Shown piece after piece: positions 4,824-39,049 of a stretch of 64,000 nucleotides of DNA (positions are counted from its first letter, which is position 1; every line of letters starts with the position of its first letter). The stretch is from positions 1,259 through 65,258 of the forward strand of contig JAMJFU010000001.1 of assembly GCA_023544525.1 (NCBI GenBank), in the 5' to 3' direction. The position numbers and the translations under genes are program-made. Below the pieces are notes generated by a model. The model worked only from the letters and a program-made list of their open reading frames with translations, ran no database searches and had not been told where the DNA came from. The stretch is from Anaerolineae bacterium. GTDB taxonomy: Bacteria; Chloroflexota; Anaerolineae; JAAYZQ01.

Positions 4824-5228
4824 ATGTCTGAAGAGAAGCGACATATCCTGGTGGTTGACGACGACGTCCAACTGGTAGACTCGGTCACAACCCTGTTGGA
4901 GAGTGTGGGCTATTCGGTGTCCTATGCCTACCATCCCGAGAAGGCCCTCGACCTGGCCAAGGAAACAAGGCCGGACCTGATCTTGCTGGACATTATGTTC
5001 GCGGGACCGCCAGGGCCCGATGGAGTCGAGGTCTCGAGACAGATCCATCGCGACCCCGAGATCCAGGACATCCCCGTGATCATGCTGTCGGGGGTCAAAA
5101 AGGTCCTGGACATGCCGGTCCACCTGGCACACGACGAGGACTATATGCCGGTCAAGGCCTTTCTGGAGAAGCCCTTCGAGCCAGAGCAGCTGCTGGCCGA
5201 GGTAGAAAAGGTCCTGGGGTCACTTTAA
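4824..5228 (+). CDS. Single-domain CheY-like response regulator receiver (atypical insertion after phospho-acceptor Asp)
   Basis: ILVVDDD...LILLDIMF...PVIMLSG receiver signature; AAGGAG RBS 8 nt upstream of ATG 4824 (longer ORF from 4659 lies upstream of predicted TSS). Confidence 0.75.
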   Translation: MSEEKRHILVVDDDVQLVDSVTTLLESVGYSVSYAYHPEKALDLAKETRPDLILLDIMFAGPPGPDGVEVSRQIHRDPEIQDIPVIMLSGVKKVLDMPVHLAHDEDYMPVKAFLEKPFEPEQLLAEVEKVLGSL

Positions 5229-5233
5229 CTTGT

Positions 5234-5263
5234 TTGACGCCTTTCCTGGTTTCATGTTATAAT
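5234..5263 (+). promoter_or_regulatory. Sigma70-like promoter TTGACG-18-TATAAT upstream of hdr-like operon
   Basis: Sequence motifs at 5234-5239 and 5258-5263, ~110 nt upstream of ATG 5377. Confidence 0.5.
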
Positions 5264-5376
5264 GCGCTGGTTGTTCACCTGGCAATCATACTTGACATGT
5301 CCTGAACCGGCTGCACATCGCATCCGACAACAACGCCGCAGCTTGTTGTAGTCTCTGCTGACCAGGAGGAGGGATC

Positions 5377-6561
5377 ATGGCGGATCGTCTGACCGGTTCC
5401 GAGCAGGACCTCTTTGCCGCAGTGCTGGGCCTGCGGGGTGGTGAGCGGATCAGCGCCTGCTACCAATGCGGGACCTGCTCCGGCTCCTGCCCTACTGCTG
5501 CGATCATGGAGTACAATCCCCGCCGCATCCTCCACATGCTGCGCCTGGGTCTGGGGGAACGCGTGCTCAAGAGCCAGGCAATCTGGCTATGCACTGCCTG
5601 TTACTCCTGTACCGCCCGCTGCCCCCGCGAGATCAAGATCAGCGATGCTATGCTCAGCTTGCGCCGCCTCACAATAGACCGCGGGCTGGATCTGCCCGCG
5701 AACCTGGCGACCATGCGGGATACGGTGACCCACCACCACAACATCTCGGGCGATGACAATGCCAGCCGCCTCATCTGGAGTGACAACCTGGAGGAGGGTG
5801 CTCTTGCCTTCCGGCAGAAGCGCCGTGCAGAGGTTGCTTTCTACGTCGGCTGCGTGGCCTCCTTCTACCCCATGGTCTATGGCATTCCCCAGGCTATGGT
5901 CCAGGTGATGGACCGGGCGGGTGTGGATTTCGCTGCACTTGGCGGTGAGGAATGGTGCTGCGGTTACCCTCTGTACACCGCCGGGATGGAGGGCCTGCTC
6001 GCCGAGCTGATGGCCCATAACGTGGCGCGCGTGCAGGAGATGGGGGCCAAAACCCTGGTGACGACCTGCCCCTCCTGCTATTACACCTGGTCGCACCTCT
6101 ATCCGGAGTTGGAATCCAAGCCCCTTGGCTTCGAGGTGCTGCATGCCTCGCAGTTTCTGGCCCGGCTGGTGGGCGATTCCGCTGTGAAGCTGGGAAGCTT
6201 TGAGCAGACGGTGACCTATCACGATCCGTGCGATCTGGGGCGCAAGAGCGGCATTTTTGACGCCCCGCGGCAGGTCATCGAGGCGATGCCGGGCATTGAG
6301 TTTCGGGAGATGGATGCCCATCGTGAGAACGCTCTTTGCTGCGGCGGGGGAGGGGACGTCCAGATGGTGGACGAACGGGTGACTGAGACGGTCGCTTCGC
6401 GGCGTCTTGGCCAGGCCCAGCAGACGGGCGCGCGGGTGATCCTTTCGGCCTGCCAGCAGTGTAAGCGGACCTTGATGGCTGCCACCCGCCGGGACAAGGT
6501 ACGTATGCGGGTCATGGACCTCTCTGAATTGGTTTTGCGGGCGATGGAGGGCGGAGCATGA
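5377..6561 (+). CDS. Heterodisulfide reductase-like Fe-S protein, HdrC/HdrB fusion (HdrD/GlpC-like; 2x[4Fe-4S] ferredoxin + two CCG domains)
   Basis: CYQCGTCSGSCP and CTACYSCTARCP ferredoxin motifs followed by Cys-rich CCG-type segments (EEWCCGYP, CPSCYY, HDPCDLG, CCGGGG). Confidence 0.75.
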   Translation: MADRLTGSEQDLFAAVLGLRGGERISACYQCGTCSGSCPTAAIMEYNPRRILHMLRLGLGERVLKSQAIWLCTACYSCTARCPREIKISDAMLSLRRLTIDRGLDLPANLATMRDTVTHHHNISGDDNASRLIWSDNLEEGALAFRQKRRAEVAFYVGCVASFYPMVYGIPQAMVQVMDRAGVDFAALGGEEWCCGYPLYTAGMEGLLAELMAHNVARVQEMGAKTLVTTCPSCYYTWSHLYPELESKPLGFEVLHASQFLARLVGDSAVKLGSFEQTVTYHDPCDLGRKSGIFDAPRQVIEAMPGIEFREMDAHRENALCCGGGGDVQMVDERVTETVASRRLGQAQQTGARVILSACQQCKRTLMAATRRDKVRMRVMDLSELVLRAMEGGA

Positions 6562-30641: not shown

Positions 30642-31661
30642 TTAGGGCGAAAAGAAAAGCATGCCCACGCCCAGTGCCTCGAGGGCCTCCTGCGCGTAGT
30701 AGCGCACCAGGTAGCTGGGATCCTCGAGCACACCGAACAAGGGCCCGATCGCCCTCTGAGACTTGATGCGGCCCAGGGCGCGGACCGCCAAGAGACGTGT
30801 GTGGGGATCCTCCGCCTCGAGCCTTCCGGCCAAGACCTGGACGGCAGGCTCGCCGATCATGCTCAGCGCGTCGGCTGCGATACTGGCGACAAAGGCGCTC
30901 TCGTCTCCCAGCAGGGTGGCCAGGGCCGGAGCCGCTTCCCCCGCTCGCAGGCGGCCGAGGGCCAGGGCGGTGCAGGCCCGCACATCAGGCTCCGGATCGC
31001 CCAGCACACCGACCAAAGCGGATACGGCCGCCTCTCCGCCGATCTCGGCCAGGGCACGGGCCGCCCACCAGCGCGTGTTGGCGTTGCCCCCGCTCAACAT
31101 CTCGACCAGGGGCGGGACAGCTTCCTGCCCAAAACGCCGCAGCGCCAAAGCGGCGGCCTCGCGACGCTCGTCATCCGCAGTGTCCAGGATCTCGAGCAGC
31201 TCAACCAGCTCTTTGTTTTCAAGCATGACCTTTTCCGCGCCCAGAGATATAGCAAACCAGCCATCGCCGGGCAGAACGGGCACATATACGAGGTGTCCCG
31301 GGCACCGGCAATCAGAGGCACCAAAACCAGGCACCACGATCCGGGCGCCAGGCAACCGGCCAAGTGTCAGGGCCCAACTGCACTCCAGTTTCTCACTGGT
31401 CTGCCGCACCCAGGCACCGCTCCAGGCAGCTCGTTCCCGAAAGAAATCGATGTGCCAGTGGGCCTTCTTATCCGCTCCCAGCCTGCGTCTGTGTCGCCGC
31501 AGACGGGCCAGCAGGCCACCCGGCCCGCGTGCGCTGCCGCTGTAGAGATACCAGCCAGCAGGCATCTGGAACGTGCCCAGACGCCCAATGGAAACAGCCT
31601 GTGGCTGGTCCAGTGACAGCGCCAGCACGTAGGCTCCCATTATACCCGATCCTGTGCGCAT
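30642..31661 (-). CDS. DUF123 (GIY-YIG-like) domain fused to PBS-lyase/HEAT-like repeats
   Basis: N-terminal YLYSGSARG...RLRRHRRR...HWHIDFF matches DUF123 signature; C-terminal tandem ~30-aa HEAT-like repeats (VR..AARALG/ALGRL). Confidence 0.55.
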   Translation of the reverse strand: MRTGSGIMGAYVLALSLDQPQAVSIGRLGTFQMPAGWYLYSGSARGPGGLLARLRRHRRRLGADKKAHWHIDFFRERAAWSGAWVRQTSEKLECSWALTLGRLPGARIVVPGFGASDCRCPGHLVYVPVLPGDGWFAISLGAEKVMLENKELVELLEILDTADDERREAAALALRRFGQEAVPPLVEMLSGGNANTRWWAARALAEIGGEAAVSALVGVLGDPEPDVRACTALALGRLRAGEAAPALATLLGDESAFVASIAADALSMIGEPAVQVLAGRLEAEDPHTRLLAVRALGRIKSQRAIGPLFGVLEDPSYLVRYYAQEALEALGVGMLFFSP

Positions 31662-31804: not shown

Positions 31805-32884
31805 TCAGCCGGCTGCCCCACGGGCCCCAGTACGTGCCTGTAGCTTTTCGGCCAATGCCTGGGCAGTAGCTGCCATCTTTTGCAGCTCACGGGCCAGTTC
31901 GCGGCCCTCGTTGATGACGGCAGCGACTTCCTCCGAGTCCTTGCCGGGGGCCGGGGGGGAGGCGGGCTCAGCGGACACCTTGCTCCTGAGCTCCTCGATG
32001 ACCTGGGCATTACTCACGGCTGCCGCCACAAAACTGGCCAGCAGGCCCAACTGGTAGCGGTCGTTCTCACCGAAGGGGCGGGACGCCTTGGCATCCACCC
32101 CCAGGACGCCCATGACCTGATCATGCAGGCGCAAGGGCACCGCCAGGCGGGATGCGCCCTTTTCGCCATCGTTTTCGCGCTCGGCAATCACCGCGCGGCC
32201 TGTGCGGGCCACCTGGCTGGCCAGGCGGTCTGTGGACCGCTGCTGCACACACCGGGCCCGCACGTCGGCCGGGCCACGGATGGCCCGCACCTCCAGCTGG
32301 TCGGTGCCGGACGCCAACAGGAGGAGTTGGCCGCCCTCCGCTTCCGTGAGGTAGATGGCCGCTTCGACCGCGACCCGCATGACCTCGTCGGGATCCCGCA
32401 GAGAAGTCAGGGCGTGGCCAATGCCGCACAGGCTGTGCAACTGGCGTACGCGTTCCTCGAGGTGCTCGCTGACTTTGATATCCTCCTGGAGGTCGGAGGT
32501 CTCCCGGCGGAGCCGCCGCTCGATGAGGGCTCGTTCCACCGACTCGAGCATCTCCTTGACGTCATAGGGCTTGATGATATAATCTCGAGCCCCCAGGCGG
32601 AAGGCCTGGATGGCCGTCTGCTCGGAACCATAAAACGTGGTGAGGATGACCGGCGTGTCGGCCCCGGCCTTGCGCAGAGCCGCCATCAGGTCCAGGCCGG
32701 ACATCCTCGGCATCTTGAGGTCGGTGATGATGAGGTCTGGTCTTTCGGCCAGCGCCTTGTCCAAGGCTTGCTTGCCGTCGACAGCGGTGATGACGTCGTA
32801 TCCCTCCGGCCGAAGGACGCTGTTCGCCAGGAACAGCAGGTTTTCCCGGCGGTCGTCGGCAACCAGGATTCTCTCCCCGCTCAT
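31805..32884 (-). CDS. Response regulator receiver + GAF domain protein
   Basis: ILVADDRRENL...LIITDLKMP receiver; downstream GAF-like region; AAGGAGC RBS at internal ATG 32884. Confidence 0.7.
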   Translation of the reverse strand: MSGERILVADDRRENLLFLANSVLRPEGYDVITAVDGKQALDKALAERPDLIITDLKMPRMSGLDLMAALRKAGADTPVILTTFYGSEQTAIQAFRLGARDYIIKPYDVKEMLESVERALIERRLRRETSDLQEDIKVSEHLEERVRQLHSLCGIGHALTSLRDPDEVMRVAVEAAIYLTEAEGGQLLLLASGTDQLEVRAIRGPADVRARCVQQRSTDRLASQVARTGRAVIAERENDGEKGASRLAVPLRLHDQVMGVLGVDAKASRPFGENDRYQLGLLASFVAAAVSNAQVIEELRSKVSAEPASPPAPGKDSEEVAAVINEGRELARELQKMAATAQALAEKLQARTGARGAAG

Positions 32885-33061
32885 CTCTGCTCCTTGTACT
32901 GGTGATATGCGTGCTCGTTTCTGTCGACCACAAAGAGTATAACAGATTTCTTGACTCCTGGCAATCAAGTCGGTATTCCGATCCAGGCTACCCGTCTTTG
33001 GTGGGCGCTGGTGTGTGACCAGTGGCTGGCACCCCGGGAAGTGTCCCCGGCGAGGGCCAGG

Positions 33062-33127
33062 GTTCGTAGTGAGCGCCGCAGCGCTTATTGGCTACCCACA
33101 ATGCGGCTAAAGCCGCTACTACGAACA
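33062..33127. repeat. Structured ~66-nt repeat, copy A (terminal inverted arms GTTCGTAGTGAGCG / CGCTACTACGAAC plus two internal hairpins)
   Basis: Direct repeat of 33159-33225 with conserved stems and variable loops. Confidence 0.6.
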
Positions 33128-33158
33128 GTAGCTCGGGCTTGCCAGGGGTCGCAGGCCC

Positions 33159-33225
33159 GCTCGTAGTGAGCGCTTCAGCGCTTTTCCGGCTGCCCGGGAT
33201 GCGGCTGAAGCCGCTACTACGAACA
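33159..33225. repeat. Structured ~67-nt repeat, copy B
   Basis: Same ends and hairpin stems as copy A; loops and central segment differ. Confidence 0.6.
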
Positions 33226-33257
33226 CCAAAGCGGCGCTCCGAGTGCGTCCCAGCGCG

Positions 33258-33286
33258 TTGCCCTTCTCCCGGGGGCATAGTATAAT
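33258..33286 (+). promoter_or_regulatory. Candidate promoter TTGCCC-17-TATAAT
   Basis: Upstream of epimerase gene ATG 33343. Confidence 0.35.
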
Positions 33287-33342
33287 GGTTGTGTGGACTA
33301 CCAGCCGGGCTGAGCAGCGCCGGCCTATAAGGAGTTTGGACC

Positions 33343-34386
33343 ATGCATTTGGATTACCAGCCGATCACGTTGAACTTGGAGACCCCGTTCCGCATCGCCC
33401 ATGGCACCAGCCTGGTGCGCGAAAACGTCCTGGTCCGCATCCGTGCCGCAGGCCTCGAAGGCCTCGGCGAGGCGGCCCCGGTGCGCCAACACCACGAGAC
33501 CCAGGCAGGTGTGATGGACTACCTGGCAGGCCTGGAGTTGCCTGGAGATCCCTTTCTCCTCGAGGAGGTAATGGCTTCCCTGCCGCCGGGCTCCCAGGCG
33601 GCCAAAGCAGCCATCGACATGGCGCTCCACGACCTGCAGGGCAAGATGCTGGGTGTGCCACTCTATCGCCTCTGGGGCTTGAACCCGGCCCGGGCTCCTG
33701 AGACCTCCTTCACCCTGGGATTGGGCCCTGTGGCTGAGGTCGAGGCCAAGGCCCGAGCCGCAGCCGAGCGTTTTTCGATCCTCAAGCTCAAGCTGGACGC
33801 CGACGAGGCGGGCTGCCTGGCGCTCGTGCGAGCAGTCCGGGCGGCTGTGGACAGCCGGCTGGTGGCCGACGCCAACTGCGCCTGGACCGTCGACCAGGCC
33901 CTGCGGCTGATCCCGGCCCTGGCCGACCTGGGCCTGGAGTGGATCGAACAGCCACTGGCGGAAGAAGACCTGGAGGGTTTGCGGAAGCTGCACCCCGAAT
34001 CACCATTGCCCATCTTTGCCGACGAGCCGGTGCGCACAGCGCGCGACATCCCGCGGTTGGCCGGCTGCGTGGACGGGGTGAACATCAAGGTCATGAAGGC
34101 TGGTGGGCTGCGCGAGGCGCAGCGAATGATCGCCGTGGCCCGCGCTCACGACCTGCAGGTGATGCTCGGCTGTATGATGGAGACCTCGGTGGGGATCACG
34201 GCCGCTGCCCACCTGGCACCGCTGGTCGATTGGGCAGACCTGGACGGCAACCTGACGGTCACCAACGACCCGTTCATCGGCGTCTTGGTTGAGAAGGGCA
34301 AGCTAATCCTGCCTGACGGTCCAGGCCTGGGTGTCAGGCCCCGGCCCGCGCCCGCTGGGACAGAGGACTCGGGGGCAAAGACATGA
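33343..34386 (+). CDS. Enolase-superfamily enzyme (MR/MLE subgroup; dipeptide epimerase-like)
   Basis: MR_MLE N- and C-domain pattern, KxK...D...E...D metal ligand spacing. Confidence 0.65.
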   Translation: MHLDYQPITLNLETPFRIAHGTSLVRENVLVRIRAAGLEGLGEAAPVRQHHETQAGVMDYLAGLELPGDPFLLEEVMASLPPGSQAAKAAIDMALHDLQGKMLGVPLYRLWGLNPARAPETSFTLGLGPVAEVEAKARAAAERFSILKLKLDADEAGCLALVRAVRAAVDSRLVADANCAWTVDQALRLIPALADLGLEWIEQPLAEEDLEGLRKLHPESPLPIFADEPVRTARDIPRLAGCVDGVNIKVMKAGGLREAQRMIAVARAHDLQVMLGCMMETSVGITAAAHLAPLVDWADLDGNLTVTNDPFIGVLVEKGKLILPDGPGLGVRPRPAPAGTEDSGAKT

Positions 34387-35456
34387 TCGTCATCGACGGC
34401 TCGTATGGCGAAGGCGGCGGGCAGGTCCTGCGGACCAGCCTGGCCCTGTCGGCCATCACGGGCCAACCCGTGCGCATCGAGCACATCCGCGCCGGCCGCC
34501 GCAAGCCAGGGCTCATGCCCCAGCATCTGACCGGGGTGCGGGCGGCGACCCGCGTATGCGATGCCCAGGTGGAGGGTGCCAGGCTCAACTCGCTGGAGCT
34601 GGCCTTTGCACCGCGGTCGGCGCCCAGAGCAGGGACGTACACCTTTGACGTAGCCCAGGCTGCCAAGGGGGGCAGCGCGGGCTCGGTGAGCCTCATCTTC
34701 CAGACGGTGCTCCTGCCCCTGGCCCTGGCGGAGGGCACCTCAGAGCTCACGCTGCGGGGTGGCACCCACGTTGCCTGGAGCCCACCCTACGACTACCTGA
34801 AGCGCGTCTACCTGCCCACCCTGGCCCGCATGGGCGTCCAGGCCAAGGTCAACATCCGCAAGTGGGGCTGGTACCCCATCGGTGGCGGCGAGGTCGAGGC
34901 GACCATCCACGGCCTGGGGCGGGCCAGCCTGGAAGCCATGGACCTTTCTCGACGCGGGGATCTACTCCGCGTACGGGGCTTGTCGGTCAGCAGCAACCTG
35001 CCCAAGCACATCCGCGTCCGCCAGGAGGGAGCGGCGTTGCAGGCACTGCGCTCCAACGGGGTCAATGCCCGCATCGATGCGATCGACGCCCCCTCCAAGG
35101 GCAAGGGCACCGCCGTGTTTCTGTGGGCCGACTTTGAGAATGCCCACGCGGGTTTCACCTCGTTGGGCGAGCTGGGCAAACCGGCCGAACAGGTTGCAGA
35201 AGAGGCCGCACAGGAGCTGGTCGAGTTCCTGCAGGCCCACGCTGCCCTGGATCGCCACCTGGCCGATCAGGTCGTGCTGCCCATGGCCCTGGCTGAGGGC
35301 AGGTCGTCCTTTACCACGGAAGCGGTCACCCAGCACCTGCTGACCAACGCCTGGGTGGTGAACCAATTCTTCTCCGGCCGGGTCCGTGTAGACGGACAGG
35401 AAGGCGAGCCGGGGGAGTGCTCCATAGAGGGAGTTGGCCGGGTGGCGGCGGATTAG
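34383..35456 (+). CDS. rtcA: RNA 3'-terminal phosphate cyclase
   Basis: IDGSYGEGGGQVLRTSLALS...HIRAGR N-terminus closely matches RtcA; ATGA overlap with upstream gene. Confidence 0.85.
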   Translation: MIVIDGSYGEGGGQVLRTSLALSAITGQPVRIEHIRAGRRKPGLMPQHLTGVRAATRVCDAQVEGARLNSLELAFAPRSAPRAGTYTFDVAQAAKGGSAGSVSLIFQTVLLPLALAEGTSELTLRGGTHVAWSPPYDYLKRVYLPTLARMGVQAKVNIRKWGWYPIGGGEVEATIHGLGRASLEAMDLSRRGDLLRVRGLSVSSNLPKHIRVRQEGAALQALRSNGVNARIDAIDAPSKGKGTAVFLWADFENAHAGFTSLGELGKPAEQVAEEAAQELVEFLQAHAALDRHLADQVVLPMALAEGRSSFTTEAVTQHLLTNAWVVNQFFSGRVRVDGQEGEPGECSIEGVGRVAAD

Positions 35457-35504
35457 ATTCGAGGATTGACGGATCTCAATAATGCTGGTATCATTCCTTG
35501 TGGC

Positions 35505-36491
35505 CTACCAACGCTGGTGCACGTGGGGCTTGATGAGGCGGTCGTAGACATCGCGCACGGCAGCCATCGTTGCCTGGCTCAAGGGTGGCAGCTCGCTGGC
35601 GGCGACGTTCTCCGCAGCCTGCGAGGGCCGCTTTGCGCCCGGGATGGTACATGTGACCGCGTCGAACATCAAGACCCAACGCAGGGCCATCTGGGCCATG
35701 CTCGCCCCTTCGGGCACCAGCCGGCGAAGTTCGTCGACGGCCATCAACCCGACCTCAAAGGGCACACCTGCGAAGGTTTCCCCCACATCAAAGGCCTCAC
35801 CCTGCCGGTTGTAGTTCCGGTGGTCGCTCTCAGGAAAGGTCGTATCGGCGCTCATCTTGCCCGTGAGCAGCCCGCTGGCCAGCGGCACGCGGGCCAGGAT
35901 GCCCACCTGCCGTGCCGTCGCCTCGCGGAAAAAGAGCTTGGCGGGGCGGTGCCGGAGCATGTTAAAGATGATCTGCACGGTCTGCACATCAGGGTATTCG
36001 ATGGCCTTGAGCGCTTCCTCGACCTTTTCGACGCTGACGCCATAGTAGCGCAGTTTCCCGGCAGCCACCAGGTCGTCAAGCACGCCAAAGACCTCAGGCC
36101 GGTAGTAGACCTCGGTGGGCGGGCAGTGGAGCTGCAGCAGGTCGATGGCTTCTACGCCCAGGTTGCCGAGGCTGCGCTCCACAAAGGCGGTGAGGTTCTC
36201 CCGGTTGTAGCCATCGGCCATGTGGGGCGAAAGCCGCCGGCCCGCCTTCGTGGCGACGTAGATGCGCTCACCGGGGCGATCGCGCAAGACCTGGCCGACG
36301 AGGGTTTCACTGCGGCCATCCCCATAGACGTCCGCTGTGTCGATCAAATTGACGCCCAGATCCAGGGCCTTGTGCAGGGCCGCCAGGGATTCCTGGTCCC
36401 TGACAGGCCCCCAATCGCCGCCAATGCCCCAGGCGCCAAAGCTGACTTCCGAAACCTGCCAGCCGGTGCGTCCCAGTTTCCGGTAATCCAT
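35505..36491 (-). CDS. Aldo/keto reductase
   Basis: YRKLGRTGWQVSEVSFGAWGIG...IDTADVYG AKR signature. Confidence 0.85.
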   Translation of the reverse strand: MDYRKLGRTGWQVSEVSFGAWGIGGDWGPVRDQESLAALHKALDLGVNLIDTADVYGDGRSETLVGQVLRDRPGERIYVATKAGRRLSPHMADGYNRENLTAFVERSLGNLGVEAIDLLQLHCPPTEVYYRPEVFGVLDDLVAAGKLRYYGVSVEKVEEALKAIEYPDVQTVQIIFNMLRHRPAKLFFREATARQVGILARVPLASGLLTGKMSADTTFPESDHRNYNRQGEAFDVGETFAGVPFEVGLMAVDELRRLVPEGASMAQMALRWVLMFDAVTCTIPGAKRPSQAAENVAASELPPLSQATMAAVRDVYDRLIKPHVHQRW

Positions 36492-36502
36492 CGCATTTCC
36501 TC

Positions 36503-39049
36503 CTAAGTGGCAGGCTTGGCCTCATAGGCTGGCACGGACAGCACCTGGTCGCCGGCCATTACCTGCCAATAGGGCCGCCAGGCCAGGCCGAACAGGCCGA
36601 GCTGCACGTCGGTCCGGCGCGGCCGCACCTCGACTTCCTCGACATCGTCGATGCGCTCTGCCCATACCTGCTTGAGCTTGTCGACCTCCTCCCGGGCCTC
36701 CTTCTCCAACCCGTCGATCTCGTCCTCGAGCGCCTCGATGGTCCTCTCTGACTCTTCCAGGTCGGCCCTGGCCTGGCGCGTCATGCGCCGTTTGCGGCTG
36801 GCCGAGGACAGGCGCGAGGACGAGCGACGCCCGGTAAAGAGACCAAACACCGACTCGACGCCAGAAAGCAGTTCTTCCTGTTTGCGGGCGTCGTGTTCGA
36901 CCTTGTCCTCGCGAAGCTCCTGCTTCTCCCGGTCCAGCTTGACCTCGATGCGCTGCAGCTCCCGCTCGTACTTTACCTTGAGCTTCTCGGCCTCGGCCTC
37001 GGAGGCATCCTCTGCCGCCTTGCGACAGCGGCGCTGGAATTCCTTCTGGCTCTCGCCAGGTTCCGAGTAGAGATCTACGTGGGGATTATGCCAGAGCGTG
37101 ATGGAAGAGTTGTAGTATAGATAATCCTCAAACTCGTTCCGTAGGGCCGTATACCGCCTGGCATCGCCCATATCGGAGGGCAGCTGGGCAAATCGAGCGC
37201 CCCGGTCGGGCTGCGACTCGAGGGTCCCGGCATCCAGGTCGACCCTGACCGAGGACCAGTCGAGGATCTGGCCGCTACCTTCCAGGGGGAGCAGATAGGT
37301 CACATCTTCCGCGTAGGTTTGCCGGCTCTTGGTGTGGACAAAACGCAGCCGGGCCGAACCCAGCAAACCTGGCTTGTAGACCAGCAGGCCCTCATCGCCT
37401 GCACCACGCCCTCCGGCCTGGGCGCGCCCGCCAGTCAGGTCAGACAGGGCAGAACTGAAAGATATCCGGACCGGCAGAAAGGCTTGCTTTACCGAGGAGG
37501 GCAGCTGGGGCGGGACCTGGCTGAGCCCATCAGTGATGGCTGCGTGCGGCTCGCGCCCTTCCGGGCGGGCTTCTGCGGCCTGCCTGGCCTCCAGCGCCAC
37601 TGCGGCACCGGGCGCCGCCTCGCCTGGCGCTGGAGCCTGCTCCGCTACCAGTTGCTGGATCTGGCGACGGGTCAGCGGCCCGCGTAGGTAGCTCATGGCC
37701 CAGCGGGTGTGAAAGACATGGGGCCTGTCCTCGTGCACGTTGTGTAGCAAGAATACGCGCGAACCCAGGGCCGAGATCATGCGGTCGAACTGCGCCCGGC
37801 TGGTGCCACCGGCGGTGACCTGGACCCCTTCCAGGCCATCGAGCAGCCTCTGTTTGTCCCGGTCGGCCTGCATGCGCCCGATAAACCAGGTGCCCGCGTT
37901 GGACAACGCCTTGTAGTCCAGGTCCACGGGGTTCTGCGTGGCCAGGACCAGGCCCAGGCCAAAGGCTCGCGCCTGTTTGAGCAAGGTCAAGAGCGGCTTC
38001 TTGGTGGGCGGGTTGGCCGGGTGGGGCGGCAGGTAGCCGAACATCTCGTCCATGTAGAGCAGGGCGCGAAGGCTGGTGGTCCCGGTCTGGGCCCGCATCC
38101 AGCTCACTACCTGTTCCAGTAGCAGGCTGACAAAGAACTCCCGCTCGGCATCGGACAGGTGGGCGATGTAGAGGACGCTCACCTGTGGCTTGCCCGCGGG
38201 GCTGCGCAACAAGCCCGAGATCTCTAGCGGCTGGCCCCTGAGCCAGTGTACAAAAGTGGGCGAAGCCACCAACCCGTTAAAGAGCATGGCCAACTGCAAG
38301 CGGTCCTTTTCAGGGAAGAAGGTGTCCAGGGGAAAAACGCCCAATTGGCTGAACGGCGGCTTCTGGATGCGCATGATCAACTGGGTCAGGTCCAGATCCT
38401 CACCGCTGCGCCACGCCTCTGCAAAGATATTCGACAGCAAAATGTGCTCCCGGCTGCGCACCGGGTCCGCTTCGATGCCGATCAGTGCCAGCAGGGCCGA
38501 GACGACGGTCTCGATCTTGTCCCGGATCAACTCATCATCCGCCTTCAGCTCCGCAGCAGGTGCCTTGAACGTCTGCAGGATGCTCAGCTCGCGGCCGGCG
38601 CTGCTGCCGGGTGTGTAGATGGCAAAGTCAGCCGCATCTTTCAGACGGCGGATCCGCTCTGCCCCCTGCCCGGTCGCTGCCAGGCCATCGCGCCACTGGC
38701 TGGCGATCTTGGCAGCGTAGCTGTCCAGGTCCATGTCCTTGCGGCGAGCATCGTCAGGGTTGACCCAGGGCCGAAAATCCTCGGGCTGCAGCTCGGGAAA
38801 GGTGAGCAGCAGGTTCGTCATGTCACCCTTGGGGTCGATCACCAGGGACGGAACGCCATCCAGCACGGCCTCCTCAAGCAAGATGATCCCCAGGCCCGTC
38901 TTACCGCTGCCGGTCATGCCCAGACAGACGGCATGTGTGGTCAGATCCCGAGCGTCATAGTGCACCGGTTCCTCGAGCAAGCTGCCCTCCGACAGGTCGT
39001 ACCCTTGCCCCAGGTAAAAACTCGCCAGGCGTTCCTCGACTGGTTCCAT
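36503..39049 (-). CDS. HerA/FtsK-superfamily (DUF87-like) P-loop ATPase with ~350-aa coiled-coil-rich C-terminal extension, 848 aa
   Basis: Walker A GMTGSGKTG, Walker B LYMDEMF, VLATQNPVDLD motif; charged coiled-coil C-terminus. Confidence 0.6.
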   Translation of the reverse strand: MEPVEERLASFYLGQGYDLSEGSLLEEPVHYDARDLTTHAVCLGMTGSGKTGLGIILLEEAVLDGVPSLVIDPKGDMTNLLLTFPELQPEDFRPWVNPDDARRKDMDLDSYAAKIASQWRDGLAATGQGAERIRRLKDAADFAIYTPGSSAGRELSILQTFKAPAAELKADDELIRDKIETVVSALLALIGIEADPVRSREHILLSNIFAEAWRSGEDLDLTQLIMRIQKPPFSQLGVFPLDTFFPEKDRLQLAMLFNGLVASPTFVHWLRGQPLEISGLLRSPAGKPQVSVLYIAHLSDAEREFFVSLLLEQVVSWMRAQTGTTSLRALLYMDEMFGYLPPHPANPPTKKPLLTLLKQARAFGLGLVLATQNPVDLDYKALSNAGTWFIGRMQADRDKQRLLDGLEGVQVTAGGTSRAQFDRMISALGSRVFLLHNVHEDRPHVFHTRWAMSYLRGPLTRRQIQQLVAEQAPAPGEAAPGAAVALEARQAAEARPEGREPHAAITDGLSQVPPQLPSSVKQAFLPVRISFSSALSDLTGGRAQAGGRGAGDEGLLVYKPGLLGSARLRFVHTKSRQTYAEDVTYLLPLEGSGQILDWSSVRVDLDAGTLESQPDRGARFAQLPSDMGDARRYTALRNEFEDYLYYNSSITLWHNPHVDLYSEPGESQKEFQRRCRKAAEDASEAEAEKLKVKYERELQRIEVKLDREKQELREDKVEHDARKQEELLSGVESVFGLFTGRRSSSRLSSASRKRRMTRQARADLEESERTIEALEDEIDGLEKEAREEVDKLKQVWAERIDDVEEVEVRPRRTDVQLGLFGLAWRPYWQVMAGDQVLSVPAYEAKPAT

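Follow-up and report, generated by a model that had tools for sequence, protein, structure and literature searches.

A small cluster of probable REP-type palindromic repeats between divergent genes in an Anaerolineae bacterium

The locus and its two tandem repeats

The window, a 64-kb stretch of DNA from an Anaerolineae bacterium, carries two tandem repeats between divergently oriented genes (Table 1). On one side lies the gene for a REC-GAF protein, in which Pfam recognizes no DNA-binding domain; on the other lie the genes for an MR/MLE-type dipeptide epimerase and for RtcA. These flanking genes confirm the setting proposed for the repeats from the letters alone, between a REC-GAF regulator gene and the promoter of an epimerase-rtcA operon. 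A sigma-70-like promoter match precedes the genes on each side, and, to judge by the positions of the two matches, the gap between the promoters holds both repeats, which are thus upstream of each. No promoter or terminator belonging to the repeats themselves is found. The repeats in this untranscribed gap probably do not regulate the epimerase-rtcA operon and are tolerated there as passengers.

The two copies start 97 nt apart and agree in 56 of their 66 aligned positions. Both begin with TCGTAGTGAGCGC and finish with ATGCGGCT(A/G)AAGCCGCTACTACGAACA, which bears out the unit positions and common ends described in the sequence-only reading. Within the 64-kb window, exact matches to the 13-mer and 15-mer unit ends occur at these two places only, a covariance model of the family detects no third copy, and a survey of the whole window for repeats reveals no other short-range repeat family. 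The spacer between the copies holds a 3'-flank motif, AGTAGCTCGGGC, which resembles the GGTGCTWCYGGC found after the repeats of a second locus, L005, as well as a partial duplicate of the 5' border of the repeat, GCCAGGGGTCGCAG.

Two features of the surrounding window can be recorded here. A 346-aa open reading frame without a Pfam match at 35466-36506 (+) is the shadow of a minus-strand aldo/keto reductase gene at 35505-36491. At 30642-31661 (-), a gene encoding a DUF123-HEAT repeat fusion adjoins a uracil-DNA glycosylase family gene; the fusion gene is kept in all relatives examined.

Table 1. Genes, promoter matches and repeat units at the locus (window coordinates).
Feature	Position	Strand	Description
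REC-GAF gene	31805..32884	-	
Promoter of REC-GAF gene	32936..32964	-	sigma-70-like, TTGCCA-17-TATACT; kept in relatives without the repeat
Copy 1 (putative REP dimer 1)	33062..33127	+	head-to-head pair of GTAG-tagged mini-hairpins, 18-nt spacer; 82.9 bits
Copy 1, left putative REP unit	33062..33085	+	GTTC-GTAG-TG-AGCGC-cgca-GCGCT; GTAG at 33066-33069; perfect 5-bp stem, 4-nt loop
Copy 1, right putative REP unit	33103..33126	-	GTTC-GTAG-TA-GCGGC-ttta-GCCGC (minus-strand reading)
Inter-dimer spacer	33128..33158	+	partial duplicate of the dimer 5' border at 33141-33154
Copy 2 (putative REP dimer 2)	33159..33225	+	87.7 bits; corresponds to the single dimer kept in L006-L008
Copy 2, left putative REP unit	33159..33182	+	GCTC-GTAG-TG-AGCGC-ttca-GCGCT
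Copy 2, right putative REP unit	33201..33224	-	GTTC-GTAG-TA-GCGGC-ttca-GCCGC (minus-strand reading)
Promoter of epimerase-rtcA operon	33258..33286	+	sigma-70-like, TTGCCC-17-TATAAT; kept in relatives without the repeat
Epimerase gene	33343..34386	+	MR/MLE-type dipeptide epimerase
rtcA	34383..35456	+	RtcA

Architecture, dispersal and strain variation

Each copy is an inverted pair of short units, one on each strand, in which GYTC-GTAG-TR leads into a GC stem of 5 bp that encloses a TTYR loop. The left arm reads GYTC-GTAG-TG-AGCGC-(CGCA/TTCA)-GCGCT on the top strand, and the right arm reads GTTC-GTAG-TA-GCGGC-(TTTA/TTCA)-GCCGC on the bottom strand. The GTAG ends of the pair point outward (the HH type), and the 18-20 nt between the mini-hairpins are variable and hold no consistent structure. 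GTAG is present at the start of all four units in the window and of every intact unit in the homologous loci L003-L008; the left arm of L005_a, a degenerate copy, lacks it. A scan for GTAG, two nucleotides, a perfect 5-bp stem and a 4-nt loop across 173 kb, comprising the window and Anaerolineae-type loci, returns 13 matches against an estimated chance expectation of about 1.3. All 13 fall inside copies of the element (4 in the window), and each is preceded by GTTC or GCTC. The loops are less free than they appear. Identical stems with differing loops had been noted from the sequence, a pattern that stands and is that of REP families, but across all homologues the loops, read in their own GTAG orientation, are TTCA, TTTA, TTCG or TTTG and are thus constrained to TTYR, as they are in a REP that has been studied; the exceptions are the CGCA left loop of copy 1, an 8-nt loop in L004 and the degenerate L005_a.

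Both copies fold far more stably than dinucleotide shuffles, whether treated as RNA (z = -4.9 and -5.1) or as DNA (z = -5.5 and -5.0), and fold strongly on either strand. The preferred structure of copy 1 is a three-way junction, with a terminal stem and two or three small hairpins; that of copy 2 and of the L006 copy is one long hairpin. The long terminal stem and the small hairpins had been drawn as a single structure. The pairing of each is borne out, but the junction and the long hairpin are alternative folds, because the inner part of the terminal stem (AGCG/CGCT) shares bases with both small hairpins and the two cannot coexist in full. The small stems are likewise as first described, with the loop of hairpin 1 amended from three nucleotides to four (AGCGC-NNNN-GCGCT).

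The closest homologues of the epimerase come from Anaerolineae metagenome bins. The number of copies varies among relatives. The window has two dimers; L006-L008, with 98% epimerase identity, have one, equivalent to copy 2; and L020 (87%), L009 (84%) and L021-L024 (77%) have none. Gene order is the same and both promoter blocks are kept in all of these relatives. With its series of zero, one and two dimers, the element is thus a recent gain at this site and no part of the conserved regulatory region. The element does not travel with the epimerase-rtcA operon as a cis-regulatory element should, being absent from L009, L020 and L021-L024. A second presence/absence polymorphism lies nearby: between rtcA and the aldo/keto reductase gene, L006 carries two extra small genes (4987-5741; window equivalent 35456-35505), one encoding 101 aa and the other a 149-aa TumE-like protein, and the window has neither.

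The exact two-arm pattern was scanned against 185,579 species-representative genomes, and a similar pattern against a metagenome collection. The genome scan yields one true homologue, L003, a Chloroflexota metagenome-assembled genome with AT-rich flanks; its other two matches, L001 and L002, are chance hits in GC-rich, apparently coding sequence without hairpins, and the window itself is not among the matches. The metagenome scan yields two contigs, L004 and L005, the latter with two tandem copies of which one is degenerate. A single-arm scan of viral contigs adds L027, in which the right arm is perfect and the left arm has decayed; five other single-arm matches in viral contigs are chance hits in coding DNA, and two-arm scans of viral contigs return either no match or chance matches only (0 of 10 confirmed by the model). 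Under the covariance model full copies score 60-90 bits and L027 scores 29 bits, and neither the window nor some 170 kb of related DNA yields anything further. A BLAST search of the 206-nt region against plasmid and phage collections gives no match. The element sequence string likewise has no match in a full-text literature search, in which an 8-mer search is swamped by primers. In its exact form the element is represented by one locus with two dimers in 64 kb and is not amplified in the scanned genome or metagenome collections.

The copies are extragenic and occupy five unrelated intergenic contexts in different contigs, the homologues outside this locus being spread over four Chloroflexota-like ones. 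The L003 copy lies between FtsK and UbiE genes, the L004 copy between a gene of unknown function and a GAF-PAS histidine kinase gene, upstream of the latter, and the two L005 copies between a short C-terminal open reading frame fragment and a xanthine/uracil permease gene, upstream of the permease. In all three loci the element stands shortly downstream of a stop codon and, where the sequence is read by eye, a degenerate partner copy accompanies the full one. Its orientation relative to neighbouring genes varies between loci. The 23-nt left arm is identical in the window and in L003 despite the AT-rich flanks of L003, an identity that, judged from the sequence, could reflect selection for a host function.

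No target-site duplication (TSD) is found, nor any direct repeat shared by the flanks of the eight copies, and the CT cleavage dinucleotide of the studied RAYTs is not consistently beside the units. Flanking DNA does recur. The 12-nt motif GGTGCTWCYGGC follows the L005 dimers (302-313 and 435-446), and its kin AGTAGCTCGGGC follows copy 1 in the window (33128-33139); a similar stretch precedes the single L006 dimer (about 2557-2568). Recurrence of this motif beside dimers in two lineages suggests that the reiterated unit includes flanking DNA; the repeated or mobile unit, on this sequence pattern, may be longer than the 66-nt palindrome.

Two of these loci hold further repeats or signals of their own. 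In L004, a different GTAG-headed repeat directly adjoins the element; at 5925-6150 it forms two tandem inverted pairs (GTAGGGGAGAGGCATTCC ... GGAATGCCTCGCCCC) with arms 61-68 nt apart, and with the element these fill some 600 nt of intergenic DNA rich in repeats. In L005 (460-610), a promoter-like TTGCGC-17-TAGAAT precedes a leader, about 110 nt long, that ends in a clear intrinsic terminator (AACCTAATGGGA...TCCCATTAGGTTTTTT), upstream of the xanthine/uracil permease gene; this leader has no Rfam match and may be an undescribed attenuator or riboswitch.

Among near-identical strains, substitutions concentrate in the element. Over 1555 aligned nt, L006 and L007 differ at 12 positions, of which 9 fall within the 67-nt element (binomial P = 1e-10); L006 and L008 differ at 4, with 3 inside (P = 3e-4); and L007 and L008 differ at 8, with 6 inside (P = 2e-7). 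The excess inside the element is roughly 60-fold, and assembly artefacts possibly lie behind it, the three sequences coming from three independently assembled metagenomes. The L008 element is a mosaic of the L006 and L007 alleles. In L007, the left loop changes from TTCA to TTCG together with the right loop from TGAA to CGAA, and the long hairpin stays paired; in L007 and L008, a C-to-G change breaks small hairpin 2 with a G.G mismatch. Either gene conversion among members of the family or template switching in a quasi-palindrome could produce such a pattern, which argues against strict conservation of a small-hairpin RNA fold. The idea that the L007 allele represents a sub-family shared with L005 is rejected, as sequence identities do not support it.

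Weighing the readings

Together these observations probably identify the two copies as a small cluster of REP-type repeats arranged as head-to-head, REPIN-like dimers. The element combines a GTAG tag, a short GC stem-loop, an HH dimer and extragenic dispersal with the lack of a TSD. Its 5-bp stems, 2 nt from GTAG, and its loops of 4 nt (8 in L004) fall within the published range for REPs, and its copies show both dimer folds that have been described, two hairpins in the junction of copy 1 and one long hairpin in copy 2 and L006. The element therefore has the layout of a REP/REPIN. Of the alternatives first offered, a structured RNA or a MITE/REP-type element, the REP part is retained on the strength of the GTAG hairpin pairs, the dispersal, the 0/1/2 copy series and the lack of a TSD, and the RNA part is set aside.

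By analogy with the studied systems, we infer mobilization by a RAYT. A Y1 HUH transposase (RAYT/TnpA-REP) whose gene lies elsewhere in the genome would recognize the GTAG tag and hairpin on single-stranded DNA, and by cutting and rejoining that DNA would let the dimer spread. A tandem dimer with its flank might then arise by re-insertion beside an existing copy, by slippage or by unequal recombination, and the rapid, partly concerted changes in the two arms might arise by gene conversion or template switching within the quasi-palindrome. As single-stranded DNA or RNA, a dimer can fold arm by arm into two mini-hairpins or in its entirety into one long hairpin. Neither a tblastn search with Anaerolineae Y1_Tnp nor Pfam annotation of the neighbouring genes detects a Y1 transposase in the window or in element-bearing loci; a Y1_Tnp gene does occur in the relative L021, flanked by a different hairpin. 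This L021 gene (1361-1918, -) encodes a 185-aa Y1_Tnp protein (PF01797) and has direct copies of the hairpin AGCCTTGCGAAGGT at 1293-1306 and 1942-1955. The same contig holds a long G/C homopolymer tract at about 1310-1345 and, at about 2020-2115, just upstream of serS, an inverted heptad array in which (GATCAGC)n faces (GCTGATG/A)n.

One rival reading is a small structured RNA gene or motif in two tandem copies, whether a three-way junction, a tRNA-like molecule or a Y-RNA-like partner of rtcA. The strong folding (on both strands), the retention of arm sequence across lineages, two compensatory changes in hairpin 2 from G-C to A-U (in L003 and L005_a) and the adjacency of rtcA, an RNA-repair gene, speak for it, and GUAGUGAG presumably recalls the Ro-binding stem of Y RNAs. 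The searches nonetheless leave it quite improbable. Rfam 15, which includes Y RNA, YrlA and Chloroflexi-1, has nothing at gathering score in the window, and the homologous loci are likewise without a match; even at E<=10, positions 32850-33400 return only 8-9 bit matches to an unrelated sRNA model and no Y RNA or YrlA. Across nine sequences, two pairs change on both sides, a level of covariation reached by 100 of 500 shuffles for the junction and by 282 of 500 for the long hairpin, and the structured RNA first proposed here accordingly finds no backing from either search. The G.G mismatch in L007 and L008 breaks hairpin 2, the units stand upstream of the two conserved promoter-like sites with no promoter or terminator of their own, and no Ro/TROVE or RtcB gene lies within about 9 kb. 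Orthologous epimerase-rtcA loci at 77-87% identity also lack the element, which is present, in either orientation to its neighbours, at loci without rtcA; with the lack of an Rfam match, this distribution rejects the Y-RNA or RNA-repair partner that GUAGUGAG and rtcA had brought to mind. Much the same distribution bears on a protein-binding DNA site between the promoters, be it an operator, an activating site or a nucleoid-protein or gyrase site, serving the REC-GAF gene, the epimerase-rtcA operon or both. Its placement between two divergent promoters would suit such a site, as would the kept palindromic half-sites GTTCGTAG/CTACGAAC and the distance of about 30 nt that, in the window and in L005 alike, separates the 3' end of the element from a -35-like box downstream. 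Yet orthologous loci have the same genes and promoters without the element, other copies adjoin unrelated genes, the REC-GAF protein has no DNA-binding domain, and a 66-bp palindrome with a variable centre does not resemble an operator, all of which makes this reading very improbable.

Classical MITEs, deletion derivatives of a DDE-type insertion sequence with 9-13 bp terminal inverted repeats (TIRs; GTTCGTAGT.../...ACTACGAAC), would account for the inverted repeats at the ends of all full copies, for the size of about 66 nt, for the dispersed intergenic distribution and for the presence/absence polymorphism; the parent would be an insertion sequence of this type whose TIRs match GTTCGTAGTGAGCG. 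Such an origin is unlikely, given that none of the eight copies has a TSD, that no parent insertion sequence and no similar sequence in plasmid or phage collections is found, and that the supposed TIR resolves in each arm into GTAG, 2 nt and a self-complementary mini-hairpin, which is REP architecture. A tandem duplication that is purely local and belongs to no larger family, its hairpins formed by chance in GC-rich intergenic DNA, has in its favour that the 64 kb contain just two copies, side by side. It is refuted by homologues on other contigs and is extremely improbable. Homologues occur in at least four other unrelated contigs at 60-82 bits, L027 being weaker (29 bits) and half-degenerate. 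A recent simple duplication does not fit either, because the two copies differ at 10 of 66 positions and the flanks differ by 2-3% from the one-copy relatives. One further reading would grant the element a role. A low-copy palindromic module might be kept by selection in several Chloroflexota lineages, as an RNA, a cruciform or a protein-binding insulator, with the hotspot as dedicated diversification or correction. The module would then be a transcribed three-way-junction or long-hairpin RNA, or a supercoil-sensitive cruciform or insulator, and the hotspot would not be ordinary REP turnover; the chance of this is small. The REP-type cluster remains the preferred reading. The feature is most likely an ordinary one, a known sort of repetitive or mobile DNA, recently gained, and not a new RNA, and it is unusual only in its host phylum, in pairing a very low observed copy number with highly conserved arms, and in the strain hotspot.

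Known repeat systems and wider meaning

GTAG-tagged REPs are described in Proteobacteria, Cyanobacteria, Chloroflexi and the PVC group (Di Nocera et al., 2013; PMC3733652). Their stems span 5-13 bp and their loops 2-20 nt; dimers are frequent and predominantly HH, with GTAG outside, and include heterodimers with different stems that fold separately or as one large stem-loop (PMC3733652). Dimers reiterated in tandem with flanking DNA form clusters, family sizes range from thousands of units down to 20-100 or fewer, and a position between divergent genes is less usual (PMC3733652). REPs also turn over quickly between strains (PMC3733652; PMC3116915). The present element resembles the REPINs of the group 3 RAYT type as an inverted heterodimer with GTAG facing out, extragenic, without a TSD, in tandem with flanking DNA and subject to rapid turnover. 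It departs from group 3 REP systems in that no RAYT is found in the examined DNA.

Two proteobacterial REPs offer close comparisons. Corneloup et al. (2021; PMC8266576) show that the REPMb of Marinomonas consists of GTAG, 2 bases and a 5-bp perfect palindrome around a TTTA loop whose T12, T13 and A15 are indispensable. Both arms here have this layout, with the loop in the form TTNA. In Pseudomonas, the PF22 REP is GTrGTGAGCGGGCTTGCCCCGCGCT (Nunvar et al., 2013; PMC3686654), and PF22 of P. fluorescens and the left arm here (GTAGTGAGCGC..GCGCT) have GTAGTGAGCG...GCGCT in common. Unlike the REPs of Pseudomonas and Marinomonas, the element belongs to an uncultured member of the Anaerolineae (Chloroflexota), not to a proteobacterium, and it has an extra conserved GYTC outside GTAG, a short spacer of 18-20 nt and a very low observed copy number. 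Within the same phylum, the GTAG-23 family of Thermomicrobium roseum and Roseiflexus castenholzii is, in a comparison made by description only, also GTAG-tagged, palindromic and mostly clustered at few loci (PMC3733652). The T. roseum elements are reportedly inserted in CCGSSCC(n3-4)GGSSCGG palindromes, which are not seen here (PMC3733652).

Small, non-autonomous, hairpin-forming and intergenic, the element also shares traits with IS200/IS605-derived elements and TIR-type MITEs; the ends of IS200/IS605 elements are not mutual inverted repeats, however, and TIR-type MITEs make TSDs, of which none is seen here. The BIMEs of E. coli are composed of y and z REPs in alternating orientation, and are intergenic and polymorphic between strains. 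The likeness here lies in two REP types in alternate orientation, the intergenic position and the polymorphism between strains; E. coli REPs differ as imperfect palindromes of 29-37 nt with a conserved bulge, a directly abutting GTAG and hundreds of copies. Integron attC sites are imperfect palindromes ended by the core sites RYYYAAC ... GTTRRRY and stand beside gene cassettes. As a candidate identity for the element they are rejected: ends of the form GTTCGTA... / ...TACGAAC misfit the core sites in their required order, and neither a cassette array nor an integrase lies nearby.

For annotation, the two units are best labelled REP-type repeats, not a candidate riboswitch, an sRNA or a regulatory site of epimerase-rtcA. 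What is understood of REP and REPIN biology comes almost wholly from Proteobacteria, and the occurrence in the Anaerolineae of the same unit as in the Marinomonas REP, GTAG, 2 nt, 5 bp and TTNA, suggests a widespread recognition code. The series of zero, one and two copies, together with the hotspot, provides a natural case for the study of how palindromes change, through gene conversion or template switching, and the element could serve as a strain marker in metagenomes.
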